From the NCBI GenBank assembly GCA_017448245.1, contig JAFSLV010000028.1, positions 32,441 to 96,440 on the forward strand: DNA of 64,000 nucleotides, given 5' to 3'. The notes under the pieces were generated by a model. It worked only from the letters and a program-made list of their open reading frames with translations. It was not told the origin of the DNA and searched no databases. Within the stretch, counting starts at the first letter, position 1; each line of letters starts with the position of its first letter. The DNA is from Lachnospiraceae bacterium (lineage in GTDB: Bacteria > Bacillota > Clostridia > Lachnospirales > Lachnospiraceae). Positions 2,586 through 52,479 of the stretch are shown in pieces. A program made the translations under genes and the position numbers.

Positions 2586-4169
2586 TTATTTGTGTGATGT
2601 GACGGCCGTAACCGCCGCTTTTAAGACCAGATTGACCAGCAGAATCATGACGGAGACAAAGGCCGCACTCTCCATGAGCAGCTGCGCCTCAAACTGCGTG
2701 ATCATGAGCGCGACGGGCTTTGGCGAGGGCGGTGCGAGAAACGATACCGCGGAAATCGTCATCATCGAATTGACAAAGAAAAACGCGAACATCTCGAGTA
2801 ACGTCATGCGTACCTTGGGCACAATCACGTCGCAGATGATCCGCAGCCTGGCGATTCCGAGGCTCCTTCCCACTGCTTCGAGATGCTCGTTGACCTTGAC
2901 GAGGGAGTTGTACATCATCAGATAGGGCGAGGCAAAAAAGTGGACCGTGTTGACCATGAGGATGAGCACGACCGTGCCGTAGATGACGCGTCCCGAAAAA
3001 AAGATCACGTAGGAAAGACCGAGAACCAGACCGGGAATCGCCATCGCGGACATCGAAAGCAGATGCAGTGCCCGCGAAAAACGGCTCCTGACGCGTGCGG
3101 TCATATAGGCACACACAAAGGCGACCAGCGTCCCGAGGAGTCCGGTGAGTACCGCATAGAGCAGAGAGTTTTTCAGATACGTGAGCGCGCCCCGGTTGAT
3201 CGTCTTTTCGATGTGATAGAGCGTAAAGGCCGGATTGACCGGATACTTGGTCGCAAAGACCATCAGGCAGAAGGATACGATCGGCGCGATGACAAAGACC
3301 CCGAGCAGGGAGCAAAAGCAAAAAGCGAGCAGATCCCTGCCGCCCTGCTTTTCGGGTATGACGGGTGTTGTCACAAAGGCGCTCTGCGCGTCCTCCGGAT
3401 GCAGCACGTCCACGACAAAGGCGATGACCGCGGGAATCAGAAGCAGTACGCCGATTGCGCTGCCCTGCCCGTAATCGAGCATACCGACCGCACGGTTGTA
3501 CATGAGGACGGAGAGCGTGATCTCCTTTCCGCCGATGAGGAGCGGTACGCCGTAGTCCGTCATGATCATGCTGAAGACCGCAAAGAACACGGAGATCATG
3601 GTCTTTCGCAAAAAGGGCAGCGTGATCGCAAAAAACCTGTCTCTTCCGGAGATCCCGAGCACCTTCGCCGCCTGATACGGCGAAGCGTCCTCGTAGCGCA
3701 GTATTCCCGTAAACATCAACAGCGCCACCGGAAACGCGTACATCACGGAACCCGCGATGATCCCCGCATAACCGTAGATCCCGCTGCGCAGCCCGAGGAG
3801 TCTCGTGACCAGACCGTTGGTGCCAAAGAGCGCGACCAGGCCGAATGCGTGTGAGATCGAGGGGATGAGCATCGGCACGACGAGGAGCATCCGGAAGAAC
3901 GCCTTTCCCTTCATCGCCGTGCGCTCCAGGGCAAACGCCGCCGCCATCGACAGCGCCATCGTCACGACGGTTGCGAGAAAGGAGGTGACGAGCGAATTGA
4001 CAAGTGCCTGTGAAAATTGCGGAGAGGCAGCCAGCGACGAGACTTTTTCCGGCGTGATGCGCGCAAACATGCGCAGAATCGGAAATGCGACACCGGTCAG
4101 AAAAAACAGGGCGATCGAGATCTGTATCACGCGCTGCGCGATATTCTTTTCCCTGCGATATGCGCTCAT
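2586..4169 (-). CDS. ABC transporter permease with two BPD_transp_1 repeats (FbpB/PhnU-like)
   Basis: Hydrophobic, with two EAA-like loops (YQAAKVLG, EAVGRSLG). Confidence 0.88.
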   Translation of the reverse strand: MSAYRREKNIAQRVIQISIALFFLTGVAFPILRMFARITPEKVSSLAASPQFSQALVNSLVTSFLATVVTMALSMAAAFALERTAMKGKAFFRMLLVVPMLIPSISHAFGLVALFGTNGLVTRLLGLRSGIYGYAGIIAGSVMYAFPVALLMFTGILRYEDASPYQAAKVLGISGRDRFFAITLPFLRKTMISVFFAVFSMIMTDYGVPLLIGGKEITLSVLMYNRAVGMLDYGQGSAIGVLLLIPAVIAFVVDVLHPEDAQSAFVTTPVIPEKQGGRDLLAFCFCSLLGVFVIAPIVSFCLMVFATKYPVNPAFTLYHIEKTINRGALTYLKNSLLYAVLTGLLGTLVAFVCAYMTARVRSRFSRALHLLSMSAMAIPGLVLGLSYVIFFSGRVIYGTVVLILMVNTVHFFASPYLMMYNSLVKVNEHLEAVGRSLGIARLRIICDVIVPKVRMTLLEMFAFFFVNSMMTISAVSFLAPPSPKPVALMITQFEAQLLMESAAFVSVMILLVNLVLKAAVTAVTSHK

Positions 4170-4981
4170 GTCGCATCCTTTGCGTAAGGAGCGGCGTGCG
4201 CGATCACTTTTTCAAAGCGCGAGAGCGAATCGATCTTGGCCTTGAGATTGTCGAGCACAAAGGTCTGCACGTATTCGTCCGCCGGATGTGCACAGATCTC
4301 TTCCGGCGTGTCGATCTGCGCGATGCGTCCCTCGTCAAGGATCATGATGCGGTCCGAAAGCGCAAAAGCCTCCTCCTGATCATGCGTGACATAGATCATC
4401 GTGGTGCCGAATCGTTCCTGCAGGCGCTTGAGCTCCGCGCGCATGCTGAGCCTCGTCGCCGCGTCGAGTGCGCTCATCGGCTCGTCAAAGAGCACGATGT
4501 CAGGCTGTAAGGCAAGCGTCCTCGCGATCGCGACACGCTGCTGCTGCCCGCCGGAGAGCCTGGCCGGCATACGCTTCATATACTCCTTTAATCCGACCGC
4601 TTCGAGCATCTGCTGCGCGATGTCGTCCGCCCTGTCCCTGGTTTCCTTTTTTCTGCGCAGGGCATAGGCGACGTTGTCGAACACGTTCATATTTTCAAAG
4701 AGTGCGTAGTTCTGGAAGACGATGCCCATGCCGCGTTTGTCGGGCGGTGCGTGCGTGATGTCCCTGCCGTCCTTTTCGATCGTCCCCGTATCGGGCGCAA
4801 GGAGCCCGATCAGGATGCGCAACAGCGTCGTCTTCCCGCAACCCGAAGGGCCGAGCAGGGACAAGAATTCCCCGTCGGCCACTTCAAAGCTGACCTGCCG
4901 CAGGACACCGTGCGCATCAAACTGTTTGGAGATGTCCCGCGCCTGTAATTTTGTTTTCTTCCCGTTTACGAGAACGTCCAT
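4166..4981 (-). CDS. ABC transporter ATP-binding protein (PotA/FbpC/PhnT-like)
   Basis: GPSGCGKTT, LSGGQQQRVAIAR, LLFDEP-type Walker B (VLFDEP). Confidence 0.95.
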   Translation of the reverse strand: MDVLVNGKKTKLQARDISKQFDAHGVLRQVSFEVADGEFLSLLGPSGCGKTTLLRILIGLLAPDTGTIEKDGRDITHAPPDKRGMGIVFQNYALFENMNVFDNVAYALRRKKETRDRADDIAQQMLEAVGLKEYMKRMPARLSGGQQQRVAIARTLALQPDIVLFDEPMSALDAATRLSMRAELKRLQERFGTTMIYVTHDQEEAFALSDRIMILDEGRIAQIDTPEEICAHPADEYVQTFVLDNLKAKIDSLSRFEKVIAHAAPYAKDAT

Positions 4982-5997
4982 CGGGCAAGGAGTCTTTCTT
5001 TTTCTTCACGCGTGTCTCCGGACATGTCACCGTAGTCGATGTTTTTCGGGAAGCCCTCGACCTCCGGTGCAAAATCCTTGAAGATCTGGTCCGGAAAATA
5101 CATTTCATTGTTCTGTCTGCACAGGTCTGTTGCAAGATATTCGAAAACCTCGCGTACTGCCGGACGGTCCGCACTTTTCGCCATCATCGCGTTGCCGTAC
5201 ATGCTGAAGGGCGAACCTTCCTCAAAGAAGAGAATCTCGAGATCGACTCCCTGTGAGATCTCGACCACCGCCTGGCTCGTCATGCCGAGTCCGATCGCGA
5301 CTTCCCCCTGCACGAGTGCATTGACGGGGCCGGAACCGGAGGAGGTGTACTGGAGGATGTTTTCGGTGAGCTGTTCAAAATACGCAAACGCTTCCTCCTC
5401 TCCCCATTCGTTGACGAGCTGTTTCAAAAACATATATCCCGTGCCGCTCGACGCCGGAGAAGGCATGGAGATCAGGCCTTTGTACTGCGGATCAAGCAGG
5501 TCCTCATAGGACACAGGTACCGGCAGTCCCCTGTCCGCAAGCACCTGCGGATTGATGATGATGCAGCCTCCGTTTTTGACCTCGGGCGTGAATTTATGAT
5601 TGTCCGGCACGATATCATCCAGAAACTGCGAGAAATCAAAATCATCGAGTGTTGCCAGATGATCCTCCATCATGTAAAGATAGCCGTACTCCTCCGAGCA
5701 GATGATATCCACCTGTGCACTGTCGCCTTCCTCGGAGACCTTGGCTGCCATCGAGGAGGAACTCATGTATTCAAGTGTGATGTTATACTCCGGAAACTTC
5801 TCACGCAGGCTGTTCAGATAGGTCTCGTTCTTATAATCCTCACCGCTCGTCCAGATGATGATATCCGTATTTTCTCCGGCGGATGCACTTCCCTGCGACG
5901 CTCCCGCACCGCTGCCTGTGGCACCCTGTGAACAACCCGCCAGCAGTCCCGCCGTCATCAACAGTAAAAGCACACGTGCTATACGATTCTTTTTCAT
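4966..5997 (-). CDS. ABC transporter substrate-binding lipoprotein (Fe3+/phosphonate/polyamine class)
   Basis: Lipobox LLAGC; PSPASSGTGY motif typical of SBP_bac_6/8. Confidence 0.88.
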   Translation of the reverse strand: MKKNRIARVLLLLMTAGLLAGCSQGATGSGAGASQGSASAGENTDIIIWTSGEDYKNETYLNSLREKFPEYNITLEYMSSSSMAAKVSEEGDSAQVDIICSEEYGYLYMMEDHLATLDDFDFSQFLDDIVPDNHKFTPEVKNGGCIIINPQVLADRGLPVPVSYEDLLDPQYKGLISMPSPASSGTGYMFLKQLVNEWGEEEAFAYFEQLTENILQYTSSGSGPVNALVQGEVAIGLGMTSQAVVEISQGVDLEILFFEEGSPFSMYGNAMMAKSADRPAVREVFEYLATDLCRQNNEMYFPDQIFKDFAPEVEGFPKNIDYGDMSGDTREEKERLLARWTFS

Positions 5998-6059
5998 ATC
6001 GGCTCCTTTGTCTTTGTCCGTTCCTTAAGGACATCCGTTGTCCTGTAAGGGCTCCTTTG

Positions 6060-6962
6060 TTATACATCGTATGTTTTATCAATTGCTTTCAATTCACGGA
6101 ATGTGTCGATCTCTATCAGATCCTCATCCGTGCATGTGCGGATCTCCACATTGTAATGATCCTTGCGGTACACGAGCGGCACCTGCTCCCAATAGCGTTC
6201 TTTGCCGCCGGGCGAGGCATATACCTCCGCAATGTCCGCGCTCAGCCGGTGTCCGTCCGCCTCGTTCCAGTAAGAGATCCCTACCATCTGGAAGAGATCC
6301 GGCCCCGTACCGCCGACCGATTCCTCCACAATGATGCCGTTTTTGGTTTTGACGCACCAGTCGTCCGTTCTGTCTCTTGCTATGCCGAGATAATTGGAAG
6401 CATACTGGTATTTGCGGATAACCCTCGGATTGGATATCACAAAGTCCGCCTCCAGCACATACGCATCGGACAGCATATACCTCGCGACCATCGCGCTTGC
6501 GATATTATTGGCCTCATTGTAGAGCGGATTCTCCAGAAAACGGATCATCGGATACTTGTAGAGGAGCTGGTCAAACTGCTCCGCAAGATACCCGCGGACG
6601 ATGTAGATCTCTCCGATCCCCGCGGCGAGCACCGCGTCGAGCAGACCGTCGATGATGCGCTCTCCGTGTACGCGCACCAGGGGCTTTGGCGTATTAAAGG
6701 TAATCGGCACGAGTCTCGTTCCAAAGCCCGCCGCGATAAAGACCGCGCGTTTGGCCCGGTACGGCTCGAGTGCCGCGAGCCCTTCCCCGGTGATCGTGCC
6801 TTTTTGCACATAGTGCAGGTCCGTCAGCTCCTTCACCGTGCGGTTGATCGTCCCGAGAGAAAGCGAAAGCTTCTTTTCGAGATCCCGCTGGGTGAGCGGC
6901 GCATCCGCCTGCGTCATGGCTTCGAGCACATCAAATTGTTTTCTTGTCAGCGTCCCTTGCAT
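6060..6962 (-). CDS. Winged-HTH fused to a LicC/PntC-like cytidylyltransferase
   Basis: N-terminal LTQRDLEKKLSLSLGTINRTVKEL HTH; AAGFGTRLVPITFNTPKPL NTP-transferase signature. Confidence 0.85.
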   Translation of the reverse strand: MQGTLTRKQFDVLEAMTQADAPLTQRDLEKKLSLSLGTINRTVKELTDLHYVQKGTITGEGLAALEPYRAKRAVFIAAGFGTRLVPITFNTPKPLVRVHGERIIDGLLDAVLAAGIGEIYIVRGYLAEQFDQLLYKYPMIRFLENPLYNEANNIASAMVARYMLSDAYVLEADFVISNPRVIRKYQYASNYLGIARDRTDDWCVKTKNGIIVEESVGGTGPDLFQMVGISYWNEADGHRLSADIAEVYASPGGKERYWEQVPLVYRKDHYNVEIRTCTDEDLIEIDTFRELKAIDKTYDV

Positions 6963-7023
6963 GGATCCTCCGCATTGTCACATCGCACGCCGCGCGTCCC
7001 GGCCGGATACGTCGCATGGCGCG

Positions 7024-7069
7024 ATGTTCAATATGCGTATCATTATACTACGTTTTTGAACATTGTCAA
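7024..7069 (-). promoter_or_regulatory. Sigma-70 promoter TTGACA-N16-TATAAT with overlapping inverted repeat ATGTTCAA-N24-TTGAACAT
   Basis: -35 at 7064-7069, -10 at 7042-7047; repeat arms at 7024-7031 and 7056-7063. Confidence 0.8.
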
Positions 7070-7114: not shown

Positions 7115-9049
7115 CTACAGAACCGCCTCGATCATGACGGGTATTTTTTGCAGTCTGCAGCGATGTGCGAGAACGGAGGCGTCCCCGTAGAAGGCATCGA
7201 TTCCGGACAGGTCCGGCGGCAGGTCTTTTGTTTCAATGATCTCTCCGATATCCGCTTTTTGGAACTGCTCCCTGACGGACGCAAAGGACGCGGCGAGCGC
7301 CCCGTCCATCCTGTCAAGCTCCCGCAGGGCAGGATGCGGCACAAGGAGGACACGGATGCGGTCCGCGTGCGCACGGAAGATGTCGATCGTATCGAGATAT
7401 TTGTCGATAGCCCGTGTGCCGTTTGCCAGAAGAAAGGCAATCGTCAGATGCCACAGCAGTGTTTTCCTGCGGGGCGGCCGCGCATCTTCCGGCTGCCGGT
7501 CCCCGGCTTCCGCATCCGGCTGCTCCTTTGCGGTCGCAAAAAACGCCTCCGGTGTCGTACAGACACAGACCTCCTCCCAGCGCGCACGGGTCTCTTCTCC
7601 CGCAAGCCTTGTCAGCGTATCGATATAGATCCCGCGCATCGTTTCATCGGGCAGAAGGATCCGGTCTGCCTGTGCGGATGCCGGCTGTTCGATCAGGACG
7701 GAGAGCGCAGACAACGCCTTGCCGTCCCCCTCCTCCGGTGTATAGAGATCATGGCAGGGGATACAGACGAGCTGCCCCGCAAGCTGCCTCAGGCGTGATG
7801 ACACAAAAAAGTCCGGCAGCGTCACGGCATTGCAATCCGTATCATACGGATCCTGGATAAAGATCATGTCCGGCCGGTGCGCGCCGAAATCATAGGCTGC
7901 GGCATCGGTCAGCGGGATATCTTCCGAAAAAAGATCCGCCTCTTTGACAATCTGCGGATCGCTCCCGTCCGGTCCGTAGGCGATGTAGGGAGGCACGATC
8001 ACGACGACATGACAGTCTCTGTCCGCGGATGCCTCCCGGTAATACGGTTCCATGGTCTTCCACCAGTCCGCACGAACGGGAAGAAAGACGATTTCTTTTT
8101 TTTCTCCGTCCCTCTTTTCCGGCACGGAACGTACCGGAGGAAGGGGCGCGCCTTTATCCCAGGTATAGCGCCAGGCGTTTTTTCCGGTCGCACGCCGGAA
8201 GGCCTCCTCCTGTACATCATAAACCGGATACTCGTGGATGCCGCCGCTTTTGACGATGCGCATGTAATCGCCGTATTCGGTTTTCAGTACCTCGTCATAC
8301 CGTGCGGGAACGGGCAGACGTACATGTTCAAAGGGCAGATACACGCGGTGCGCATACCATGCCTTGTCATAGCGGTGATTTCTTTTTTCCACCCAGAAGG
8401 GCATGAGCGCCACATGCGTAGCCGTCGCGGAATCACGGGCCGCAAAGAGACGTTCCGTTTCGAGCATCTTGGCCCTGCAGGTTTTTGCGTCGCCCTTTTT
8501 TGCCGCGGCCTCCGCCTCCTTCATCGACCGGTACGCTTTTTGAGCGCGCTCCTCTTCCGCTTCGTTGTCCTCATAGAGTCCGTCCAGAGGAAAGAGGTCG
8601 ACGCCGACCGTAAAGGGACAGCCGTAAAAGGCGGCCAGATGTTCTTCGCTGTAATCGATGACACGCGCATTGGTGATACGCGGCAGATAATTGGTATATT
8701 CTTTTTCTCCGGAAAGATCGAGCACGCAGTAGCCGGACGGCAGCTCTTTTTTGGCGATCTGCAGGAAACGGTTCATGTCATGGCGCATCATCACGATGTC
8801 CAGATCATCATCCCACGGGATATAGCCTCCATGGCGCACGGCGCCGAGCAACGACCCGTTGTCCGCATACCACGGGATGTCGTGCCTTGCGCAGATCGCG
8901 TCGATCTCCGAAAGCACCCGCAGCTGCGCCGCCCAGTATCGCTTCATCATCTCGGAGACGTAGAAGCCCTCGCGCGATTCGGGACAGAAACAGGACGGAT
9001 TCCGGATATCCTTGATCCCGATGTTGTTCTCCTGAGAATCATCTGCCAT
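7115..9049 (-). CDS. licD: LicD-family phosphotransferase with C-terminal GT-B/TagF-like region
   Basis: GSLLGAVRHGGYIPWDDDLD, VDLFPLD, YGDYM motifs; ATG overlaps the ppd stop (TGATG). Confidence 0.9.
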   Translation of the reverse strand: MADDSQENNIGIKDIRNPSCFCPESREGFYVSEMMKRYWAAQLRVLSEIDAICARHDIPWYADNGSLLGAVRHGGYIPWDDDLDIVMMRHDMNRFLQIAKKELPSGYCVLDLSGEKEYTNYLPRITNARVIDYSEEHLAAFYGCPFTVGVDLFPLDGLYEDNEAEEERAQKAYRSMKEAEAAAKKGDAKTCRAKMLETERLFAARDSATATHVALMPFWVEKRNHRYDKAWYAHRVYLPFEHVRLPVPARYDEVLKTEYGDYMRIVKSGGIHEYPVYDVQEEAFRRATGKNAWRYTWDKGAPLPPVRSVPEKRDGEKKEIVFLPVRADWWKTMEPYYREASADRDCHVVVIVPPYIAYGPDGSDPQIVKEADLFSEDIPLTDAAAYDFGAHRPDMIFIQDPYDTDCNAVTLPDFFVSSRLRQLAGQLVCIPCHDLYTPEEGDGKALSALSVLIEQPASAQADRILLPDETMRGIYIDTLTRLAGEETRARWEEVCVCTTPEAFFATAKEQPDAEAGDRQPEDARPPRRKTLLWHLTIAFLLANGTRAIDKYLDTIDIFRAHADRIRVLLVPHPALRELDRMDGALAASFASVREQFQKADIGEIIETKDLPPDLSGIDAFYGDASVLAHRCRLQKIPVMIEAVL

Positions 9050-10161
9050 CAAAGCATCTCCATAAATGCGTGTTTATTCTCCATGGCGCTTGTCTTCGGT
9101 CTTCCGAGATCCGCGCGCGATCCGATGGCACAGCACACCTCTATGAGCGTCAGTGTATGTGCCTCCTTTGCCTTTCTTACGGCATCCGCCAGCGCTTCCT
9201 CGTCCGCGACACGGACGGTCTTCGGATAACCGCAGGCTGCTGCGATCTCCGCAACGGAACGCCCTCCCATCACCGTCGGCTGTCCGCCGACGGATTCATG
9301 TGCTCCGTTATTGATCACGATATGGATGAGATTGTCCGGATGACAGGACGCGATGACAGGCAGCGCACCCAGGTGCATGAGAGCCGCTCCGTCACCGTCG
9401 ATACACCAGAATCTCTTTTCGGGCTTTGCGATCGCAAGTCCCAGTGCGACCGAGGAGCAATGCCCCATTGAGCCGACCGTCAGAAAATCATGCGCGTGCG
9501 TCTGCCCCGCGGCATCCCGGAGCTCATAGACCTCTCTGCCGGCTTTTCCGGTGGTCGCGATCACCGCATCGTCTCCCGTTTCCGCAAGAATCGTGCGGAT
9601 CGCATCCTCCCGCAGCAGCGTATGCGTATTGGTATATCCCACGGCGGCATCGGCACTGAGTGCACCCTTGCGTACGACAAAGGCCGCACTCTTTCCCTTT
9701 TCAAAGAGTGTCCGGAAGCCCGTCATCACCTCCGCTGCCTGCTCTGTCGTTGTTTCCTTGCCGATGACAAAGGACGCGATCTCCATATCCTCCAGGAGCT
9801 TTACGGTCACCTCTCCCTGAAAGATGTGCTGCGGCTCGTCATGGACCCCGGGCTCCCCTCTCCAGCCGACGATAAAAAGCACGGGAATCCCGTAGACGCG
9901 GTCACTGAGGAGCGAGGCCGCGGGATTGATGATATTGCCCTCGCCGGAGTTTTGCATATAGACGACGGGCACCTGCCCCGTCGCCAGATGACAACCCGCC
10001 GCCAGCGCACAGGCATTTCCTTCATTGGCACAGATCACGTGATGCGCGGGATCCGTGCCGTACATCTCATACAGCGTATCACAGAGCGCCTTCAGCTGTG
10101 AATCGGGCACCCCCGCAAAAAAAGACGCACCGCTCAGTTCGATCAGTTCTTTTGCCTGCAT
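9049..10161 (-). CDS. aepY: Phosphonopyruvate decarboxylase
   Basis: FFAGVPDSQLK, RGEPGVHDEPQH, GSMGH, TPP motif DGDGAALM; adjacent to PEP mutase. Confidence 0.95.
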   Translation of the reverse strand: MQAKELIELSGASFFAGVPDSQLKALCDTLYEMYGTDPAHHVICANEGNACALAAGCHLATGQVPVVYMQNSGEGNIINPAASLLSDRVYGIPVLFIVGWRGEPGVHDEPQHIFQGEVTVKLLEDMEIASFVIGKETTTEQAAEVMTGFRTLFEKGKSAAFVVRKGALSADAAVGYTNTHTLLREDAIRTILAETGDDAVIATTGKAGREVYELRDAAGQTHAHDFLTVGSMGHCSSVALGLAIAKPEKRFWCIDGDGAALMHLGALPVIASCHPDNLIHIVINNGAHESVGGQPTVMGGRSVAEIAAACGYPKTVRVADEEALADAVRKAKEAHTLTLIEVCCAIGSRADLGRPKTSAMENKHAFMEML

Positions 10162-10179: not shown

Positions 10180-12189
10180 TTATACTTCCTCCGGAATCAG
10201 TGTGATGATCTCCTTGATCGGCATACAGGTCTCGTCACACTCTTTGGCCCGGTGATGCGTAAGAATCGATTTTGCGGCATTTTGCATGGCGGGAAAACCG
10301 GTCCTTGTCAGCTGGTTGGCATAGATGACGACATTGGCACCCCGCTCTTTGAATTCCTCCTCCGTCACGCCGTTAAAGGACGTCGGCACCAGCACCACCG
10401 GTGTCGTCGCATCCTTTTTGCGGAAGCGCTCCAGGAAGACAAAGATCTCCTCCGGATCCTTTTTACGACTGTGGATCATGATCGCGTCCGCACCGGCCGC
10501 GACAAAAGCCTCCGCGCGCGCGAGCGCGTCCTCCATCCCCTGCTCCAGGATCAGGGACTCGATACGCGCACAGATCATAAAGTCTTTGGTCTTTTGCGCA
10601 CGCTTCCCCGCTGCGATCTTTTCCGCAAAGTGTTCGATCGTATCCTGTGTCTGCGCGACCTCCGTGCCGAAGAGCGAGTTTTTCTTTAAGCCCGCCTTGT
10701 CCTCGATGATGATCATCGAGACGCCCATACGCTCGAGGCTGCGCACCGTATAGACAAAATGCTCCGTGAGTCCGCCCGTGTCTCCGTCAAAGATGATCGG
10801 TTTGGTCGTGACCTCGCAGATATCGTCAATCGTGCGGAAACGGCTCGTCATGTCGACCAGCTCGATGTCAGGTTTTCCCTTGGCCGTCGAATCGCACAGA
10901 GAGGAAATCCACATGGCGTCAAACTGTCTGGCGGCACCGTCCTGATAGACCACGGTATTTTCGACGATGAGGCCGGTGATGCCGCTGTGCGCCTCCATGG
11001 CCGTGACGAGTCCCTTCATTTCGATGAGCCTCTTTAAGCGTCCTCTTCTGGCATCCGGCAGCGACAGTTCCGCTCGTGTACGGTTTTGCAGGTCGCGGTA
11101 TTTGGCGTCTCCGTGATACGGATACTCGATGAGACGGCCGCCGTAACTGGCAAGCAGCGATACCACTTCGTCGCGTACCGGCTTTTGGAAGCCGGTGACC
11201 CAGTCATCGCCGTGGACGACGATCGCGGGATGCAGCGCTTCGATATTTTCTTTGTAACTCAGGGAATTCTGCGCTACGACCCGGGCGACGTCACGGATAT
11301 TTTCAAACATGACCTTTCGTTCCTCAAAGGGAACAAGCGGATAACGCTTGTAGGCCGCGACCGCCTCGTCCGTAAGAATCCCGATAACGAGCTTTCCGTA
11401 ACGTGCCCCCCTTCGTATGAGATCGATATGTCCGCCGTGGATGATGTCCGTGGAAAAGACCATGTAGACGATACGGTTTCTGACCTCTTCCGCCCGCTTT
11501 GCGACCTCCTGCAGATCTTCGGCATTGTCGATCTCGCTACAGAGGAGATTTTTTACATCGAGCGCGCGGATCTCACAATCCCCGGATACTTTATTAAAAG
11601 CATCCTCCGCATAACAGCCGCGGTTTCCGTCCTTGCAAAAGGATGTGATCTCGTCGAACCATACTTTTTTGTCTTTTTGTAGCAGCTTATAAAAGGGCTG
11701 CGCGGCCATCGCGTCACGCTCGACATGCACGCCGACCTCCGTGACCCTGCCGTCTTTGATACGCGCTTTAAAATCCTTTTCCGGAAGCGGCAGCGTCGAG
11801 GATACGGTCATCACGCTGTGCCCGGACTGTACCACCAGATCCAGCACCTCGTTTTCAAATACAAGATCTCCGTGCAACAGCAACAGATCGTCGTCCAGAA
11901 ACTCCTTTGCGCATTCGATGGACCAGATATAGTTGGTTTCCCTGTATTCCGCGTTATGCACAAAGGTCACATCGGCATCTGTCCCCAGCGTATCCACATA
12001 TTCCTTTAAGATCTCTTCGAAGGGGCCCGTCGTGATGACGATGTCCCGGATGCCGGCTTCCGTAAGCTGTTTCAGCTGTCTGGAGAGAATCGTCTCTCCG
12101 AAAGAAATCTCCGTCATGCATTTGGGATGCTCGCTCGTCAGTATTCCCATGCGTGTACCCGTACCGCTGTTCAGGATCAATGCCTTCAT
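10180..12189 (-). CDS. aepX: Three-domain fusion: PntC-like NTP transferase, HIGH-type cytidylyltransferase and phosphoenolpyruvate mutase
   Basis: LNSGTGTRMG, DIIHGGH, and PEP mutase motifs EAHSGIT, DGDTGG, EDKAGLKKNS. Start moved to ATG 12189 (ATGA overlap with the upstream stop). Confidence 0.95.
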   Translation of the reverse strand: MKALILNSGTGTRMGILTSEHPKCMTEISFGETILSRQLKQLTEAGIRDIVITTGPFEEILKEYVDTLGTDADVTFVHNAEYRETNYIWSIECAKEFLDDDLLLLHGDLVFENEVLDLVVQSGHSVMTVSSTLPLPEKDFKARIKDGRVTEVGVHVERDAMAAQPFYKLLQKDKKVWFDEITSFCKDGNRGCYAEDAFNKVSGDCEIRALDVKNLLCSEIDNAEDLQEVAKRAEEVRNRIVYMVFSTDIIHGGHIDLIRRGARYGKLVIGILTDEAVAAYKRYPLVPFEERKVMFENIRDVARVVAQNSLSYKENIEALHPAIVVHGDDWVTGFQKPVRDEVVSLLASYGGRLIEYPYHGDAKYRDLQNRTRAELSLPDARRGRLKRLIEMKGLVTAMEAHSGITGLIVENTVVYQDGAARQFDAMWISSLCDSTAKGKPDIELVDMTSRFRTIDDICEVTTKPIIFDGDTGGLTEHFVYTVRSLERMGVSMIIIEDKAGLKKNSLFGTEVAQTQDTIEHFAEKIAAGKRAQKTKDFMICARIESLILEQGMEDALARAEAFVAAGADAIMIHSRKKDPEEIFVFLERFRKKDATTPVVLVPTSFNGVTEEEFKERGANVVIYANQLTRTGFPAMQNAAKSILTHHRAKECDETCMPIKEIITLIPEEV

Positions 12190-13472
12190 ATGCCTGCCTC
12201 CTTCATCATGTGCCGCACCGCCTGCGGACAGGTATAACACTCCCGTACCCTGCGGTGACCCGCCTGTGCGATTTTCTTTCTCTCGTCTTCATGTGACAGA
12301 TAGTACGCCGCCTTTTCCATCATCTCATCAAAGGAGGAAAATGTCACGAGTTCTTTTCCGTCCGTAAAGAGCTCCCGGATCTCCGGCTGCGCGTCGGTGA
12401 GCGCAAATCCTCCCGCCCCGAGGATATCAAAAACGCGCAACGAAACACCCGACTCGATCGAGGGGGGCGTCAGATGGAGATTGATCTTTGAGGCACGGAA
12501 TACCAGGGGCATCTCCTCTTCGTAGCTGACGGCGCCGCGGATGTCGAGCGACGCCGGAAGCATCTTTTTTGCTTCTTCGGGATATGTCGTATAGAGACGA
12601 ATGCTTTGATCTCCTTCCGGTGCGGCAAGCGCAGAGAGCGCGGTGAGCGCACGGATCCTCTCCCTGTGCGCGCATTCCTGCGCGAGCGTCGCCGTCACCA
12701 TCAGATACTCCCAGTCCTCTTCCGCATAGAGTTCCTTGTGTTCCGTGCTGAAGTGTGCGCGCATCCCGTTGTATGTCTCTCTCGAAAGCATTTCATAGAC
12801 CGAACCTCCCTCTCCCCGGTGCCCGATGGCCCTGTCCAGCAGATCGTCACATTCTTTTTTGGCTTCCGGGGCGAGTTTTGCAAAAAAGGCATCCCGCGCG
12901 GGATTCTCGTAGAGATTGCCGACAAAGGAGATATCCGCACGATAAGGTGAGAGGTCTTTTGCCATCATCTCCGGCATGGATACGCGCGTGACATTTGTTG
13001 CGAGCGGCCGGTAAAAGACATGGGGGATTCCCCGCGCCCGCATCCTTGCGAGCTGCTCTTTGTCAAAGACAAAGACCCGGTTCGTGTCGTACAGCGCTTC
13101 CTTCAGATAGAGTCCGCGTTGCGGCGCGTCATGCACCCAGGACAGATAGGTATGCGCAGTACGATGACAGGCTTCCGCAACCACGGCGGAAAAGTCCCTG
13201 GTGATGACAAGAAGCTCTCCCTTCCGGTCTGCATGCGGCACCTGTGGGCCGCCCGGCAGGATCTCTTCCTCTGTGCGCAGAATCTCCGCAAGCACCGCCG
13301 AAAGATCCTCCTCCGTGTACTCCGCGTCCGGCACGCGCAGCTCCGCTATACGCACATCCTCATAGCCGGATTCGAGAAAACCCCAGATCATATCGGCATC
13401 GGTGATTTCTGCCTGTTCAAAATAAAGAACGGTCAGGGGCTTTATGCGATATGCCTTTTTCTTTTGCTTCAT
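12186..13472 (-). CDS. CgeB/DUF3880-type glycosyltransferase (Glyco_trans_1_2)
   Basis: SWVHDAP, ISFVGNLY, SKINL, RVFDILGAGGFALT, IAQAG motifs. Confidence 0.85.
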   Translation of the reverse strand: MKQKKKAYRIKPLTVLYFEQAEITDADMIWGFLESGYEDVRIAELRVPDAEYTEEDLSAVLAEILRTEEEILPGGPQVPHADRKGELLVITRDFSAVVAEACHRTAHTYLSWVHDAPQRGLYLKEALYDTNRVFVFDKEQLARMRARGIPHVFYRPLATNVTRVSMPEMMAKDLSPYRADISFVGNLYENPARDAFFAKLAPEAKKECDDLLDRAIGHRGEGGSVYEMLSRETYNGMRAHFSTEHKELYAEEDWEYLMVTATLAQECAHRERIRALTALSALAAPEGDQSIRLYTTYPEEAKKMLPASLDIRGAVSYEEEMPLVFRASKINLHLTPPSIESGVSLRVFDILGAGGFALTDAQPEIRELFTDGKELVTFSSFDEMMEKAAYYLSHEDERKKIAQAGHRRVRECYTCPQAVRHMMKEAGI

Positions 13473-16470: not shown

Positions 16471-17403
16471 TCAATGATCCCTTTGGTCGTCCATTCTCAT
16501 TACGGCATAGCGGCAATAATCCCTGGCATACCGGTACTGTTCCTCGCCGTACGCACCGTATTCTATCCCGTGTTTTTCTTTATATCCCGTCCAGTTACTC
16601 CATAACAGACCGGCGGCCGCAATATAGCAATAGATCTTGACTCTGGTCGTTTTGTCACATCCTCCTTCGTCTTCAAAATACAGATCGATCAGATGATCCG
16701 CCTGCTCTTTGCTGTAATTGCTGTATACCGCAAACATCGCAATATCGAGATGCGGATCCTGCATACCGGCATACTCCCAGTCTGTCAGATGTATGATTCC
16801 TTCGGCCCCGGCATCGAGAATCAGAAAATTATCGGGCACCGCGTCGATATGTGACAGAACCCGTTCCCTTTTGCAACCGTCCACGTAACGCTTTAACTCC
16901 ATAACATGGTCTTTTGTCTCTTCATAATCCGGAAACCGTTCTTTATGCCCCGCGCACAAGGACTCATAGCGAAGGATCTCTCCGTATAAGTCAAATGAAT
17001 GTCTTACCTCCAGCCGCATACGGTGAAGGGATTTCAATTTATCCATGCAGGCGCGGATTTCCGTCTCATTATACGGGTCACAGCATCTCGCGTTTTCATA
17101 AAACCGGGTAATCTTATAACCGTTTTCCGCATCAATATACACCGGATCGTCACACAGGCCGTATCCTTTGATCGCATGATGAACTTCGACTTCCTGATGT
17201 CTGTTGATGAGTTCCTGTGTTCCTTCGCCCGGCAGGCGGAACAGATACCTTTCATCCCGGAAGCCAAACACATACGAATGATTGGTCATACCTCCCTTGA
17301 TCAGCTGCAGATCCCGGATTTCTGTTTTGCCACACTGCAGGATACCCGACAGGATACGGATACATTCATCCGTTTTTATTCTATTGCTACGCACTTCATT
17401 CAT
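16471..17403 (-). CDS. licA: Choline/ethanolamine kinase (LicA-like)
   Basis: GGMTNHSY, RLPGEGT, SHIDAVPDNFL, LTDWEYAGMQD. Confidence 0.88.
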   Translation of the reverse strand: MNEVRSNRIKTDECIRILSGILQCGKTEIRDLQLIKGGMTNHSYVFGFRDERYLFRLPGEGTQELINRHQEVEVHHAIKGYGLCDDPVYIDAENGYKITRFYENARCCDPYNETEIRACMDKLKSLHRMRLEVRHSFDLYGEILRYESLCAGHKERFPDYEETKDHVMELKRYVDGCKRERVLSHIDAVPDNFLILDAGAEGIIHLTDWEYAGMQDPHLDIAMFAVYSNYSKEQADHLIDLYFEDEGGCDKTTRVKIYCYIAAAGLLWSNWTGYKEKHGIEYGAYGEEQYRYARDYCRYAVMRMDDQRDH

Positions 17404-18124
17404 TGCTTTCCGCCCGGATTCCTTTTTGTTCCTTATTGTTCTGATCAAACATCCTCAGCTCTTCCGGCGTATCAAACTCACTGATCACGCTTTTGTCATA
17501 CCTTCTGATCCGCATTTTTAAAACATCCAGATGCTCCGCAAAGATACTCTCCCACAGCTTATCCTTCGTCTGAGGCAGATCATATTCCCGTTCCAGTATT
17601 TTCAAAAATGTTCGGCTGAAGTCTTTCGACCAAAAGGTATGTCCAAGCATATACCATGCATCATAACCACCGATTGTTACGGAATAGACATATCCTTCCT
17701 CATCCTCTTCCATACACCACTCCCCGGTGGCACCGTCCGCATGAATCGCGGAATAATAAGACTCACTCACGCAGCGTTCAAACGGATTGACGGTAAAGTA
17801 ATTATCCGATGAGCACACATAACTGTTTCCAAGAATCTCCCGCGCAACCCATATGGAAGAGTGATTATTGCGCACTTCCCATTCCGGATTATGAATCAGA
17901 TGTACCTGCTCCCATTTTTTCTCCAGATACGCAAACTGTTCCGACCGGTATCCTGTCGTAATATAGATAGCAGGCACCCCCGCCTCCAGGAGTTGTCGGA
18001 TCTGGCGCTCGATCAGCACCTCCCCTCCGACGACAAACAGTCCTTTTGGCTTGTCATCAGAAAGCTGTCCCATCCTTTTTGATCTGCCTGCGGCAAGAAT
18101 GAGGGCATTGTCTGCTTCGATCAT
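17396..18124 (-). CDS. licC: CTP:phosphocholine cytidylyltransferase (LicC-like)
   Basis: ALILAAGRSKRM, KPKGL, RNNHSS, SEFDT. Confidence 0.88.
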   Translation of the reverse strand: MIEADNALILAAGRSKRMGQLSDDKPKGLFVVGGEVLIERQIRQLLEAGVPAIYITTGYRSEQFAYLEKKWEQVHLIHNPEWEVRNNHSSIWVAREILGNSYVCSSDNYFTVNPFERCVSESYYSAIHADGATGEWCMEEDEEGYVYSVTIGGYDAWYMLGHTFWSKDFSRTFLKILEREYDLPQTKDKLWESIFAEHLDVLKMRIRRYDKSVISEFDTPEELRMFDQNNKEQKGIRAESNE

Positions 18125-45272: not shown

Positions 45273-46097
45273 TTAGCCGAGGAGGGAGAGCACACCCTGG
45301 TTGGACTGGTTGGCCTGTGCCAGCATCGACTGGCCCGCCTGCGCCAGGATGTTGTTGTTGGAGTAGCGAACCATTTCTGTCGCCATGTCCGTATCCCTGA
45401 TCTGGCTTTCGGCTGCGGTCGTATTTTCAACGACGTTGTCGAGGTTGGCGATCGTGTGCTCTAATCTGTTCTGTACGGCACCGAGATCGGAGCGCTGTTT
45501 CGAAACGGAGATCAGTGCTCTCTTGACACTGTCGATCATCGTACGGGCAAGGGAACCGTGTGTGCCGGTGACCTTGATGGAGCCGACACCGATCTTGGTG
45601 GCGCCGATCGAGGTGATGTCGATCGTGATCTGGTTTCCGGAAGCGGATTCCGCACCGACCTGGAGTTTCTTGCCGGTAAAGGTACCGTTCAGCAGCATCT
45701 GCTCGTTGAAGGTCGTGGTCTCGGATACGCGGTTGATCTCGCTCGTCAGGGCATCGATCTCGGACTGGATGTATGCACGATCCGTCGACTGCAGCGTGTC
45801 GGTACCCGCCTTGTTGATCAACTCATTCATGCGCTGTAACATGTCATGGACTTCACCGAGCGCGCCTTCCGCCGTCTGTACGCAGGAGATACCGTCCTGT
45901 GCGTTTAAGGAAGCCTGGGTCAGACCCCTGATCTGTCTGCGCATTTTTTCACTGATGGCAAGGCCTGCCGCGTCGTCCGCCGCGCGGTTAACTTTGTAAC
46001 CGGAAGAAAGCTTCTCGGTGGACTTCGCCTGCTGGGAAGTCGTGATGCCTAACATTCTGTTGCTGTTCATTGCCGTGAGATTGTGTTGTACTACCAT
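45273..46097 (-). CDS. fliC: Flagellin (274 aa, minimal variable region)
   Basis: EKLSSGYKVNRAADDAAGLAISEKMR; RSDLGAVQNRLEH; IRDTDMA. Confidence 0.98.
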   Translation of the reverse strand: MVVQHNLTAMNSNRMLGITTSQQAKSTEKLSSGYKVNRAADDAAGLAISEKMRRQIRGLTQASLNAQDGISCVQTAEGALGEVHDMLQRMNELINKAGTDTLQSTDRAYIQSEIDALTSEINRVSETTTFNEQMLLNGTFTGKKLQVGAESASGNQITIDITSIGATKIGVGSIKVTGTHGSLARTMIDSVKRALISVSKQRSDLGAVQNRLEHTIANLDNVVENTTAAESQIRDTDMATEMVRYSNNNILAQAGQSMLAQANQSNQGVLSLLG

Positions 46098-46292
46098 TTT
46101 GTTTTCCTCCTTGAAGATGCCTCATCTTCCTGAATCCGTGAGCATAAAATTACCGCAACGGGGACTCTATGCTCTGTCCCTTGCTGCGGTATCGCTCTCC
46201 ATGCGTTTTAGGTAGTTGCGGCATCCTTGTCGCCTTACCTGCAGCTGTATCTGATTGTGTTTTGCAAGTGTTGTTTTGCTCTTGCACTCTAT

Positions 46293-46319
46293 ATATCGGA
46301 CGCTATCAATCAAACTTTA
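46293..46319 (-). promoter_or_regulatory. Sigma-28 promoter of flagellin 1
   Basis: TAAA-N15-TCCGATAT. Confidence 0.9.
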
Positions 46320-46517
46320 TACCCTTCACGCATTTTTTTTGCATAACCACGTGAATCTATGATTTTTGGCACGCAAAATGCTTGTAATCCAATCAGCCCG
46401 AAGCACCGGGTATTGCATAGCCGATAAAAACTGACAGGCGGGCATTGTACAACTGTAAATATCTGTAATCAGCCCGAAGCACTCCGCTGCTGAGGGCGTG
46501 AAACGAGGTGAATTGTG

Positions 46518-46627
46518 CTACCGGCGGCGCAGCCATTGTGCGAAGCACAATTCGGAATGGCTGTCCGCGCCGCTTTCTCTGCCATGCAGAGAAACGCCGC
46601 TGCGGAAGCAGCGGCGTTTCGTGGTAG
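46518..46627. repeat. Multi-hairpin palindromic element (REP-like) that includes the likely flagellin 2 terminator
   Basis: Nested stems CTACC/GGTAG, GCGGCGC/GCGCCGC, AGCCATT/AATGGCT, ATTGTGC-gaa-GCACAAT, TTTCTCTGC/GCAGAGAAA, and a 13-bp stem at 46591-46620. Confidence 0.6.
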
Positions 46628-46659
46628 TTTTGTTAGGTAAGACCCGAACAATCCTAGTC

Positions 46660-47484
46660 TTATCCGAGCAAGGACAGCACGCCCTGGTTGGACTGGTTGG
46701 CCTGTGCCAGCATCGACTGACCCGCCTGAGCCAGAATGTTGTTGTTCGAGTACTTGACCATTTCTGTCGCCATATCCGTATCGCGGATCTGGGATTCGGC
46801 AGCGGTCGTGTTCTCCACAACGTTGTTCAGGTTGTTGACGGTGTGCTCTAAGCGGTTCTGCACAGCACCGAGGTCGGAACGCTGTCTCGAAACGGAGATC
46901 AGAGCTCTCTTGACACTGTCAATCATCGTGCGGGCAAGCGAGCCGTGCGTGCCGGTAACCTTGATGGAACCAACACCGATCTGCGATGCGCTGATCGATT
47001 TGATGTCGATCGTGATCTGGTTGCCGGAAGAGGACTCGGAACCAACCTGGAGCTTCTTGCCGGTGAACGTGCCGTTCAGCAGCATCTGCTCGTTGAAGGT
47101 CGTGGTCTCGGAAACGCGGTTGATCTCGCTCGTAAGAGCATCAAGTTCGGACTGGATGTAGTCACGGTCCGTGCTCTGCAGCGTGTCGGTACCCGCTTTG
47201 TTGATCAGCTCGTTCATACGCTGTAACATGTCATGAACTTCACCGAGGGCGCCTTCAGCCGTCTGCACGCAGCTGATACCATCCTGTGCGTTCAGGGAAG
47301 CCTGGGTCAGACCACGGATCTGTCTGCGCATCTTCTCACTGATCGCGAGCCCTGCCGCGTCATCAGCCGCACGGTTGACTTTGTAACCGGAAGAAAGCTT
47401 CTCGGTGGACTTCGCCTGCGTGCTGGTCGTGATGCCGAGCATTCTGTTGCTGTTCATTGCTGTAATGTTGTGTTGTACTACCAT
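46660..47484 (-). CDS. fliC: Flagellin (274 aa), paralog of 45273-46097
   Basis: Same motifs; 15 amino-acid differences by manual alignment; start moved to MVVQHN. Confidence 0.98.
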   Translation of the reverse strand: MVVQHNITAMNSNRMLGITTSTQAKSTEKLSSGYKVNRAADDAAGLAISEKMRRQIRGLTQASLNAQDGISCVQTAEGALGEVHDMLQRMNELINKAGTDTLQSTDRDYIQSELDALTSEINRVSETTTFNEQMLLNGTFTGKKLQVGSESSSGNQITIDIKSISASQIGVGSIKVTGTHGSLARTMIDSVKRALISVSRQRSDLGAVQNRLEHTVNNLNNVVENTTAAESQIRDTDMATEMVKYSNNNILAQAGQSMLAQANQSNQGVLSLLG

Positions 47485-47552
47485 GGTTTTTTCCTCCTTG
47501 AATGTGGCGCGCACAGCATCCATGCTGTGGCATACTTTGATTTACACTAATT

Positions 47553-47579
47553 ATATCGGATTTTGGGCCGGAATGTTTA
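47553..47579 (-). promoter_or_regulatory. Sigma-28 promoter of flagellin 2; the leader has a CsrA-type hairpin CACAGC-ATGGAT-GCTGTG
   Basis: TAAA-N15-TCCGATAT. Confidence 0.9.
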
Positions 47580-47620
47580 GAGATTTCTCTAAAGAAATTG
47601 TAAAAATTATCAGCAAAACT

Positions 47621-48100
47621 CTACTTTTTGCTGTCAAAATGCTGCGGTGCGATATTTTCTGTGTGGTTCATGGTCTGATAATAGGAAAAGGCCACGGTGG
47701 ACGTCTGTTTGCCTTTCCGGAGCTCCTCCCGGGTCTCCGTAAAATACTTGTCCGCCGCCGCCTTATTGCGCTGCTCCTGTGCCTCGATGGCCGAAGACAG
47801 CGCCGTCACCGTCCGGATCTGTTCCTGGAGGGACCTGATCTGTGAGGCATACCGGTCCTTGTGGGCACCGATTTCTTTTTTGACATTTTCAAACAGCGAA
47901 GCGAACCCCTCGTCCAGCTGCTCCAGCTGTTCGATCAGCTCGCCCTTACGCTCCACCGAGGTATCGAACGCGTCTTCGTCCAGAATATTGCCGCGCGCAA
48001 ACATATCGCGCTGCTCGAGACTGATGCGCTCCAGCTCCTGCAGGATGCGGATCTTCTTCTGCAGGCTGTCCTCCATCATATCCAGATAGCTTTCCGTCAT
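47621..48100 (-). CDS. FlgN/FliT-like flagellar export chaperone
   Basis: Helical, LQKKIRILQEL, ends HFDSKK; follows fliS. Confidence 0.65.
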   Translation of the reverse strand: MTESYLDMMEDSLQKKIRILQELERISLEQRDMFARGNILDEDAFDTSVERKGELIEQLEQLDEGFASLFENVKKEIGAHKDRYASQIRSLQEQIRTVTALSSAIEAQEQRNKAAADKYFTETREELRKGKQTSTVAFSYYQTMNHTENIAPQHFDSKK

Positions 48101-48486
48101 GCCGGTACCTTCAGGCCGTTCTTTCTCATTACCTCGATCCAGTTGTCGCGAATCGCGTGCATGTGGCCGTTCACTTCCTTGACGATCTCGAGGTCCTTTT
48201 TGACATTGGCCTCGACCAGGCGCCGGTCGATATAGGAATACATGTTTTCAAAGTCCTGCGCCACGGGGTAACTCATGTCCAGCGTCGCCCGGAGATACTC
48301 GATGATCTTCTCCGCCTTGACGATGTTGGTATGGGCCTTGTCCATATCATTTTTTCCGATGGCTGCTTCCGCGATGTTACAGAACTTGATGGCGCCGTCA
48401 TAGAGCATCAGCGTCAACTCGGCGGGCGATGCCGCCATGACCTTGTTGTTTGCATACTGCGCGTATGCGTTGGCTGTTGCTGTCAT
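48097..48486 (-). CDS. fliS: Flagellar chaperone FliS
   Basis: ASPAELTLMLYDGAIKF, KAEKII. Confidence 0.95.
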   Translation of the reverse strand: MTATANAYAQYANNKVMAASPAELTLMLYDGAIKFCNIAEAAIGKNDMDKAHTNIVKAEKIIEYLRATLDMSYPVAQDFENMYSYIDRRLVEANVKKDLEIVKEVNGHMHAIRDNWIEVMRKNGLKVPA

Positions 48487-48612
48487 TGTAGTTCTCCCCT
48501 GTAGAAGTGGTGTTCCTTACCGCTGCATCCTGTGTCTTATACCATATACCAAATCGCATCGCTCATGCTGCGCATTTCGCGCTGCTTTTTTCCTCATGTC
48601 TGCCTGCTTTCA

Positions 48613-48658
48613 AACAGGTACACGGATCTGCGAGTAAACTCGCATCCGTGCACCTGTT
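48613..48658. repeat. Long imperfect hairpin (REP-like or terminator) after fliD
   Basis: AACAGGT-a-CACGGAT-ct-GCGAGT-aa-ACTCGC-ATCCGTG-c-ACCTGTT. Confidence 0.6.
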
Positions 48659-48670
48659 CTCAATCCATGA

Positions 48671-50209: not shown

Positions 50210-50319
50210 AACTTCCTCCGATCTGAAGGGACGTCCCTGTCCGCTTCTGAAAATGTTACTTTCCGTTTCCTGCCGCACATCCCTGTGTGGCGCCTCCTGC
50301 TACCCTTTATCTGAAAGGA

Positions 50320-50760: not shown

Positions 50761-50890
50761 AATTGTTCACCTCCATGTGGTGTGGTGCGCATTCCCCATC
50801 GTGCCACCTCCCTGTGGTACATGCGTAATCGCTGTTTCATCTATATCAAAAGATACGCATAAAGAGACTCTATGCATTCTTTCACATTGT

Positions 50891-50917
50891 ATATCGGCTG
50901 AAAAATCGGAATCTTTA
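50891..50917 (-). promoter_or_regulatory. Sigma-28 promoter of flaG-fliD-fliS
   Basis: TAAA-N15-GCCGATAT. Confidence 0.9.
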
Positions 50918-52467: not shown

Positions 52468-52479
52468 ATATTCTTCCCC

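Follow-up and report, generated by a model that had tools for sequence, protein, structure and literature searches.

The wHTH-LicC operon of a Lachnospiraceae bacterium (contig JAFSLV010000028.1) lies within a stretch of 64,000 nucleotides, here called the window, and comprises four minus-strand genes encoding a winged helix-turn-helix (wHTH) domain fused to a LicC/PntC-type cytidylyltransferase, a substrate-binding lipoprotein, an ATP-binding cassette (ABC) ATPase and a two-domain permease. It is rather probable that wHTH-LicC, besides being an enzyme, represses the phosphonate salvage operon to which it belongs, in a BirA-like manner; its DNA binding, its effector and the cargo of the operon are what we infer from sequence comparison. 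The coordinates of all features are given in Table 1.

The operon is preceded by TTGACA-16-TATAAT (7069-7042), which agrees with the sigma-70 consensus at 12 of 12 hexamer positions and is the sole strong site that a promoter scan detected between 2300 and 7300. An inverted-repeat search returned two arms of 8 nucleotides, 100% complementary and 24 nucleotides apart, and the minus-strand sequence from 7080 to 7020 contains cTTGACAATGTTCAAaaacgtagTATAATgatacgcataTTGAACATcg. The predicted operator covers about -29 to +11, with the left arm abutting the -35 box and the right arm at about +3 to +11. An earlier note on this DNA had described a promoter overlapped by an inverted repeat, which would drive the fusion and a binding protein-ATPase-permease set directly downstream of phosphonate genes. 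All parts of this description are borne out, by the hexamers and the perfect arms, by the open reading frames and their Pfam domains, and by the genes directly upstream for a LicD-family protein, phosphonopyruvate decarboxylase (Ppd) and a phosphoenolpyruvate mutase (PEP-mutase, PepM) fusion. A position weight matrix (PWM) gives its best score in the window to this site (25.1 at 7024-7063), against 12.9 for the runner-up in 64 kb, so that within 64 kb the operon's own promoter is the sole predicted target. The PWM scan of the window detected no operator-like site upstream of the LicD, Ppd and PEP-mutase genes, which probably belong to a separate transcript.

A second inverted repeat, ACATCGC/GCGATGT (6980-6986 / 7021-7027), forms the base of a GC-rich leader hairpin. 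This hairpin begins within the right operator half and folds no better than shuffled sequences (z = -0.07). An E-value search of positions 5900-7300 gave no match to known RNA families in Rfam; on these two results a riboswitch or other known RNA in the leader was rejected. The sites of LexA (Cheo box, GAAC-N4-GTTC), Rex and CodY as well as cre sites were rejected, as they do not fit in orientation and spacing.

Conservation of the repeat upstream of orthologs had been proposed as a check. This check was run, and the repeat recurs there with half-sites spaced by 31/32 bp; it is also conserved before a sister family of 33% identity. The operator statistics refer to the upstream regions of 81 ortholog loci and the site census to 1.09 Mb of sequence. 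Within 200 nucleotides upstream of the 81 genes the top-enriched hexamer is TGAACA/TGTTCA (48 loci, 8.5 expected), which exceeds the hexamers of ribosome sites. Of about 62 pairs formed by a GTTC and the GAAC that follows it, 40 are spaced by 31 or 32 bp, and the strict pattern GTTC[AC]-N25/26-[TG]GAAC is located upstream of the orthologous gene at 40 of the 81 loci, which belong to three phyla. When all spacings from 18 to 35 were scanned, N25 gave 17 sites and N26 gave 24, and any other spacing 0-2; the N26 form occurs in 23 of the 81 regions, compared with a mean of 0.03 in the dinucleotide shuffles that served as the null for the spacing. The census of 1.09 Mb yielded 82 strict sites, 43 of them upstream of wHTH-LicC genes (40 loci), 12 upstream of genes for 2-aminoethylphosphonate (AEP) transaminase (AEPT) and 6 upstream of a binding-protein gene; the remainder comprises 1 site upstream of an APC permease gene, 3 upstream of other genes and 17 elsewhere, the last number being within the range of chance. 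PWM sites occur at a density of 0.296 per kb in the operon regions versus 0.014 per kb elsewhere, and 54 of the 81 loci possess one. The half-site consensus is yGTTCmAw, with halves yGTTCmA and TkGAACr, and the interior of the spacer is not conserved in sequence despite the 31/32-bp spacing. The -10 box is found either within the spacer (offset 12-16; window and locus L011) or, at 18 sites, directly ahead of the left half, so the operator overlaps core promoter elements or the transcription start. Its offset from the G of GTTC is 15 in the window, in L011 and, by reading of the sequence, in L116.

Public metagenomes were also scanned for TGTTCAA-N22-TTGAACA independently of any protein. The 120 arbitrary matches listed are for the most part (118) chance matches, and the other two lie 30-70 nucleotides upstream of genes for wHTH-LicC homologs with 33% identity to the window protein. 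One of these loci, L116, reads TTGAAAgTGTTCAAaaacagatGATAATttaagtatTTGAACA and has the same order of -35 box, half-site, -10 box and half-site as the window. Its protein belongs to a wHTH-LicC-choline kinase (LicCA-type) family that is common in Coriobacteriia, with some members of about 900 amino acids (L116, L174 and L201-L206, gene from 4001). GTTCA-N24-26-TGAAC (34-36 bp) is present in six of six Coriobacteriia loci sampled, at most 100 nucleotides ahead of either the fusion gene itself or the gene that opens its operon. Genes for EamA or EutH permeases, for LicD and for choline-binding repeat proteins are found next to this sister family. The recognition helix S-L-G-T/S-I/V-N is common to wHTH-LicC and the sister family; occurrence of operator and helix in both indicates that the operator-domain pair arose before phosphonate-type and choline-type operons diverged. 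Such an age speaks against the view that the two were simply inherited together on a cassette transferred in recent times.

The winged helix occupies residues ~5-57 of wHTH-LicC, where MarR_2 (33.2 bits, cutoff 27) and HTH_24 (27.6 bits, cutoff 21.9) match residues 5-54. The NTP_transferase domain starts at residue 73 (40.6 bits; NTP_transf_3, 31.7 bits; both over the Pfam cutoffs). The nearest solved sequence is LicC of S. pneumoniae (1JYK, E 6e-25), followed by the PntC-AEPT fusion 6PD1 (Tde-PntC, 1.8e-9). An AlphaFold2 model from an alignment of 38 sequences (pLDDT 94, pTM 0.90) predicts a wHTH with helices at 7-18, 25-32 and 36-48 and a beta hairpin at ~52-57, then a linker helix and the LicC fold. 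Foldseek ranked LicC (1JYK/1JYL) first, with a TM-score of 0.89-0.90 and a root mean square deviation of 2.1-2.6 Å, and PntC next; it returned no PDB entry that spans the wHTH and LicC domains together. No substitution occurs at residues A77, A78, G79, R83, P92, K93, D173, W202, W232, W258 and E259 in homologs down to 35% identity. The signature loop of this GT-A-like NTP-transferase fold (PF12804 / PF00483), of general form G-x-G-T/S-R ... P-K, is represented by AAG.G.R and the PK pair, both invariant across the 38 sequences; D173, W202, W232, W258 and E259, which represent the conserved acidic and aromatic active-site residues (EAD/DAD and YW[ED] motifs), match identical positions of LicC in the HMMER alignment. 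The invariance of the signature residues suggests that the LicC-type domain is most likely active. The wHTH match comprises only ~60 residues (profile positions 3-52 of 61), what remains being the LicC domain, and the N- and C-terminal dimerisation helices of MarR, a protein of ~140-160 amino acids, are absent; judged by its domains wHTH-LicC is not a canonical MarR protein. Its architecture is that of an enzyme-repressor, with a wHTH fused to a pathway enzyme and an operator on its own promoter and on the supply operons of its orthologs.

A gap of 62 nucleotides, which contains an AAGGAG ribosome site, separates the wHTH-LicC gene from the binding-protein gene, and a pattern scan found no convincing terminators between the four genes. 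Terminator candidates at 3298-3745 were rejected, being located inside the permease gene and as frequent as in shuffled sequence. The best NCBIfam models are the putative AEP binder PhnS2 for the binding protein (160.6 bits, curated cutoff 392.75), PhnT2 for the ATPase (323.2 bits, cutoff 457.7) and PhnU2 for the permease (348 bits, cutoff 593.25). As all three scores fall well below the cutoffs, the transporter is classified as a relative, not a member, of PhnS2/T2/U2 (TIGR03261/03265/03262). The nearest solved relatives of the binding protein are the 'Fe3+' proteins AfuA (E 1e-20) and P5PA (3e-18), and also a putative AEP binder; AfuA binds sugar phosphates and P5PA binds pyridoxal phosphate (PLP) (PMC4546632, PMC8427247). 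The earlier note had expected that such a transporter would probably be annotated as an iron or polyamine system, and a 68%-identical homolog of the binding protein is in fact named 'iron(III) transport system substrate-binding protein' by the Joint Genome Institute (JGI). In four of four orthologs picked via the binding protein alone, a wHTH-LicC gene is found ahead. A GT2 gene 3' of the permease gene starts 7 nucleotides after an extended -10 box, TGtTATAAT (2521-2545, minus strand); no ribosome site can be seen ahead of it. Its transcript may be leaderless and driven by a separate promoter, and 2586 is by these signs the probable end of the salvage operon.

The fusion family is large, with more than 8000 matches at 90% clustering, and in the 50% library 196 clusters were found at E <= 1e-30, with lengths of ~300, ~590 and ~850-890 amino acids. 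A genome search gave 343 species-level matches; the gene-order counts refer to the best 80 of these 343, which share 70-77% identity with the window protein. The 80 represent Clostridia, Negativicutes, Erysipelotrichales and Spirochaetes, for the most part of gut and rumen. The wHTH-LicC gene heads [APC permease]-AEPT-CyTase::PepM-Ppd at ~30 of the 80 loci, binding protein-ATPase-permease at ~18 and an APC permease alone at ~12; in a fourth arrangement among them no supply gene is adjacent. The company of AEPT, PepM and Ppd indicates AEP as the usual substrate. The salvage role suggested in the earlier note thereby gains comparative support, as the fusion appears at the head of AEP-synthesis or import operons and PhnS2 is the best model of the binder. 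Next to operons that have only the importer, no kinase gene was conspicuous; if there is none, the phosphorus group must be present on the molecule when it is imported.

The APC permease gene is located immediately 3' of the wHTH-LicC gene at ~25 loci, either alone or ahead of AEPT-PepM-Ppd or ABC genes. It encodes an APC-superfamily protein of ~494 amino acids with 12 predicted membrane spans (e.g., L061, 8923-10407). No description of this protein was found, and it is a candidate secondary AEP permease. In nine loci (L022, L029, L032, L034, L039, L040, L042, L053 and L073) a second wHTH-LicC is fused to the C-terminus of the permease; the genes encode ~850-870 amino acids, and the fused copy shares 47-49% identity with the window protein. 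A Rosetta-stone fusion of this kind ties the importer to the enzyme. The same nine loci also carry a free-standing wHTH-LicC with an intact recognition helix, whereas the helix is degenerate in all three permease-fused copies aligned. A close relative of the window arrangement, L207/L208 (1-3472), has a gene for an Fe-dependent alcohol dehydrogenase between triple-fusion PepM and Ppd, a Fom1/FomC/Fom2-like set which suggests hydroxyethylphosphonate. Here the wHTH-LicC gene is operon-internal, the recognition helix is degenerate (YSRESINS) and there is no operator. As SLGT[IV]N is kept in 78 of the 81 orthologs, there is no variance with which to correlate loss of the helix with loss of the operator, and the support from the permease-fused copies and L207/L208 is anecdotal.

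The described PntC and LicC proteins (Ari1348, Tde1415 and LicC of S. pneumoniae; PDB 1JYK, 6PD1; PMC6697681) are like wHTH-LicC in catalytic fold and signature residues, in their genomic company of PepM, Ppd, AEPT and LicD, and in the expected chemistry, by which cytidine triphosphate (CTP) and a phosphonate or phosphate ester give a conjugate of cytidine monophosphate or diphosphate (CMP, CDP). They lack a DNA-binding domain, whereas the window protein has an N-terminal wHTH, an operator at its promoter and an importer instead of a synthase as partner. Rice et al. defined PntC in 2019 and reported extra nucleotidyltransferases one or two genes from ppm (PMC6697681); term searches of its text gave no hits for helix, regulator, DNA-binding or transporter. 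An inventory of 2022 (PMC8942020) mentions neither regulator nor helix, and transporter once in an unrelated passage. A literature search on regulation of LicC, PntC or AEP returned nothing relevant; the papers searched contain no description of the operator or of a regulatory role for the fusion.

BirA, the biotin ligase and bio repressor, and NadR, the nicotinamide mononucleotide (NMN) adenylyltransferase and NAD regulator, likewise combine an N-terminal HTH or wHTH with a nucleotidyl-transferring enzyme of the pathway, have operators that overlap the promoter, and share the enzyme's own ligand as expected effector. The bio operator is a palindrome of ~40 bp, the ends of which are contacted by a dimer. 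The catalytic domains are not homologous, since no biotin-ligase or NMN-adenylyltransferase family is among the Pfam and NCBIfam matches; on this basis the likeness is functional only. BirA and NadR serve cofactor synthesis, whereas the system described here would serve the supply of surface head groups, with a proposed co-repressor logic. Among the AEP importers PhnSTUV, AepXVW and AepSTU (Murphy et al. 2021, PMC8316502), the characterised binders AepX, PhnS and AepS belong to pfam13343, as does the binding protein of the window, and PhnU2 is a fused double-domain permease, as in the window. These importers feed catabolism (PhnWX etc.) for phosphorus and nitrogen nutrition, whereas the window system is coupled to an enzyme that would activate the head group for surface decoration, a coupling that in nine related loci is a fusion. 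AfuABC and P5PA (PDB 4R72, 6WCE) belong to the routinely misnamed 'Fe3+' clade that binds phosphorylated small molecules and are close to the window binder; their ligands are sugar phosphates or PLP and, unlike the window system, they have no linked cytidylyltransferase or regulator. What is new, and supported by these comparisons, is a predicted enzyme-repressor on a LicC/PntC scaffold with a defined operator.

In the proposed mechanism a dimer or higher oligomer of wHTH-LicC would set two winged helices on half-sites 31-32 bp apart, a distance of three helical turns which places both half-sites on the same face of the DNA and implies reading heads that lie far apart. The bound winged helices would flank the -10 box, cover the transcription start and exclude RNA polymerase; the position of the operator on a consensus promoter argues for repression. 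Occupancy of the operator would be set by what the enzyme domain has bound; the presumed repressing species is the protein with AEP or CMP-AEP, in the way that biotinyl-AMP acts for BirA. Because the same operator precedes both AEP biosynthesis and import operons, end-product feedback is the most coherent logic and is favoured only slightly over substrate induction. In the derepressed state the binder, permease and ATPase would import a preformed small phosphonate, most likely AEP, a compound that gut and rumen contents hold in abundance. The LicC domain would then convert it with CTP to the CMP conjugate, and LicD-family transferases of the surrounding island would attach the head group to a glycan, probably on flagellin.

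Several observations weigh against this interpretation. The repeat in the window is by itself weakly significant: the relaxed pattern has 1 match in the window as compared with 0.21 expected, and at least one match occurred in 18 of 100 shuffles; the functional case is made by promoter position and conservation. Within the locus sequences examined, no recognisable PWM site is present at 27 of the 81 ortholog loci. A single dimer would have to span ~105 Å, and the sign of regulation and the effector are read from position and from the BirA analogy. The public sequencing runs that match the window are DNA runs of gut metagenomes only, with no RNA runs among them. Genes for AEP transaminase, Fe-alcohol dehydrogenase and APC permease were not found within the 64-kb window, and its LicC and choline-kinase-like pair together with the PntC-type domain on PepM make wHTH-LicC unneeded for the de novo routes, which leaves its substrate unfixed. 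At ~13 sites, moreover, a GC-rich terminator-like hairpin followed by a T-run has the right half (TGAAC) in its loop, and a pure DNA-repressor model leaves these half-sites unexplained. The hairpins are always operon-directed, with stems that vary (e.g., GGTCTGC/GCAGGCC, AGGCCCG/CGGGCCT, 15 bp in Waltera). Relative to the wHTH-LicC start such sites are located at -132 in L004, +2404 in L014, -153 in L032, -133 in L058, -158 in L067, +914 in L073 and -135 in L076, with further ones in L054, L060, L061, L071 and L078 (about +940 to +2446) and in L209. A second operator often follows ~80 bp downstream of a hairpin-type site. Hairpins with a half-site in the loop may be terminators that also act as operators, or they may be a second layer of control, at the level of RNA or of a roadblock.

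Among the alternatives, the one that survives best retains the architecture and the regulation and replaces the cargo, which could be phosphocholine, phosphoethanolamine or hydroxyethylphosphonate instead of AEP, with the corresponding CDP or CMP conjugate as product; we regard it as unlikely, though worth serious attention. The catalytic domain is nearer to pneumococcal LicC than to Tde-PntC by the E-values given above, but the AEP-specific Ari-PntC is also LicC-like and retains the aromatic box (PMC6697681), and LicC-likeness is therefore not decisive for the substrate. The sister family, with its choline kinase domain, its EamA or EutH permeases and its choline-binding proteins, points towards choline, as do the choline-kinase-like gene and the absence of AEPT in the window; the separate LicC/LicA pair of the window, however, would already serve a choline-type route. 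Hydroxyethylphosphonate is brought in by the alcohol dehydrogenase and Fom1/FomC/Fom2-like set of L207, and phosphate esters by the ligands of the solved relatives of the binding protein. Against these stand the 70-77% identical orthologs with AEPT-PepM-Ppd at ~30 of the 80 loci, where no kinase gene was noted alongside, and the best matches of all three transporter parts to models of a putative AEP system.

It is improbable that the operator is bound by another, unlinked regulator and that the winged helix serves dimerisation or protein contacts. Binding of the fusion protein to the site is a prediction, the winged helix of ~60 residues comes without MarR dimerisation helices, and the fusion occurs without a detectable site at the 27 loci mentioned. 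The motif nevertheless tracks the fusion gene in Bacillota, Spirochaetota and Actinomycetota, down to 33% identity and across operons for different cargo, and no other regulator gene is recurrent in the ortholog loci. Furthermore, SLGT[IV]N is conserved together with the operator and is degenerate in the membrane-tethered copies and in the operator-less L207. A leader structure of the attenuator or riboswitch type, formed by GUUCA/UGAAC and adjacent GC-rich hairpins, would suit the ~13 operon-directed hairpin sites, the stem sequences of which differ, and the long leader hairpin that immediately follows the right half in the window, but is very improbable, as the left half lies between -35 and -10 in the window, L011 and L116 and is thus untranscribed, the 31/32-bp spacing is fixed with an unconserved interior, the palindrome is identical on both strands, and the Rfam search and the leader fold were negative. 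Enzyme-repressor control of AEP salvage by wHTH-LicC remains the preferred explanation.

The operon is part of a larger set of glycan genes (Table 1). In addition to the listed features, the window carries a TagF-like gene and several glycosyltransferase genes, including DUF3880/Glyco_trans_1_2 types. The island has at least four LicC/CyTase-type domains and several donor routes. The triple-fusion type of PEP-mutase accounts for 2.8% of Ppm proteins (Rice et al. 2019, PMC6697681). From its gene content, the glycan cluster at 2.5-45 kb resembles an island for flagellin glycosylation in which several systems supply head-group donors.

Table 1. Features of the wHTH-LicC operon, its promoter region and its surroundings (window coordinates unless a locus is named)
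Feature	Position	Strand	Remarks
-35 hexamer TTGACA	7064..7069	-	promoter scan, sequence
-10 hexamer TATAAT, inside operator spacer	7042..7047	-	promoter scan, sequence
Predicted bipartite operator ATGTTCAA-N24-TTGAACAT	7024..7063	.	left half 7063-7056, right half 7031-7024
wHTH-LicC, proposed enzyme-repressor, 300 amino acids	6060..6962	-	MarR_2/HTH_24 + NTP_transferase
Substrate-binding lipoprotein, SBP_bac_6, candidate phosphonate binder	4966..5997	-	lipobox LAGC
ABC ATPase, ABC_tran	4166..4981	-	16-nucleotide overlap with binding-protein gene
Fused two-domain ABC permease, two BPD_transp_1	2586..4169	-	4-nucleotide overlap with ATPase gene
LicD-family transferase	7115..9052	-	directly upstream of operon
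Phosphonopyruvate decarboxylase	9049..10161	-	TIGR03297 448.7 bits, over cutoff
NTP_transf_3 (PntC-type) + CTP_transf_like (CyTase) + PEP-mutase triple fusion	10180..12240	-	TIGR02320 395.6 bits, over cutoff; motif EDKAGLKKNS
Choline/ethanolamine-kinase-like gene	16471..17448	-	beside HTH-less LicC-like gene
Second, HTH-less LicC-like gene	17396..18124	-	
Second LicD-domain protein, 640 amino acids	27426..29348	+	
Two flagellins, FliD, FlgL, two FlgK-like genes	45273..59218	-	beside DUF3880/Glyco_trans_1_2 transferases
wHTH + LicC + choline kinase, 593 amino acids	L116 1274-3052		

Recognition by the host and sensitivity to phage are both influenced by head groups of phosphonate or phosphocholine on the bacterial surface, and no explanation of how their supply is regulated in gut anaerobes was found in the literature. 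We propose tentatively, and with somewhat less confidence than for the window operon itself, that wHTH-LicC and wHTH-LicC-LicA belong together as a single class of enzyme-transcription factors, widespread but so far undescribed, which occurs in Bacillota, Spirochaetota, Negativicutes and Coriobacteriia, with a common operator, half-sites three turns apart and the own ligand (CMP-AEP or CDP-choline) as co-repressor, by which the amount of AEP or choline head groups, foreign or self-made, on the envelope or flagella of a gut bacterium would be set. Cultured carriers are Schwartzia succinivorans DSM 10502, in which locus L037 lies, Waltera acetigignens and Waltera hominis. If the proposal is true, one domain fusion would account for the regulation of AEP synthesis, of AEP or head-group import and of choline activation in hundreds of species, and would provide a compact ligand-responsive repressor-operator pair with an unusual three-turn spacing of its half-sites. 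A large group of transporters annotated as 'iron(III)' would then be phosphonate-salvage systems, and many gut bacteria would display phosphonates which they have not made themselves.

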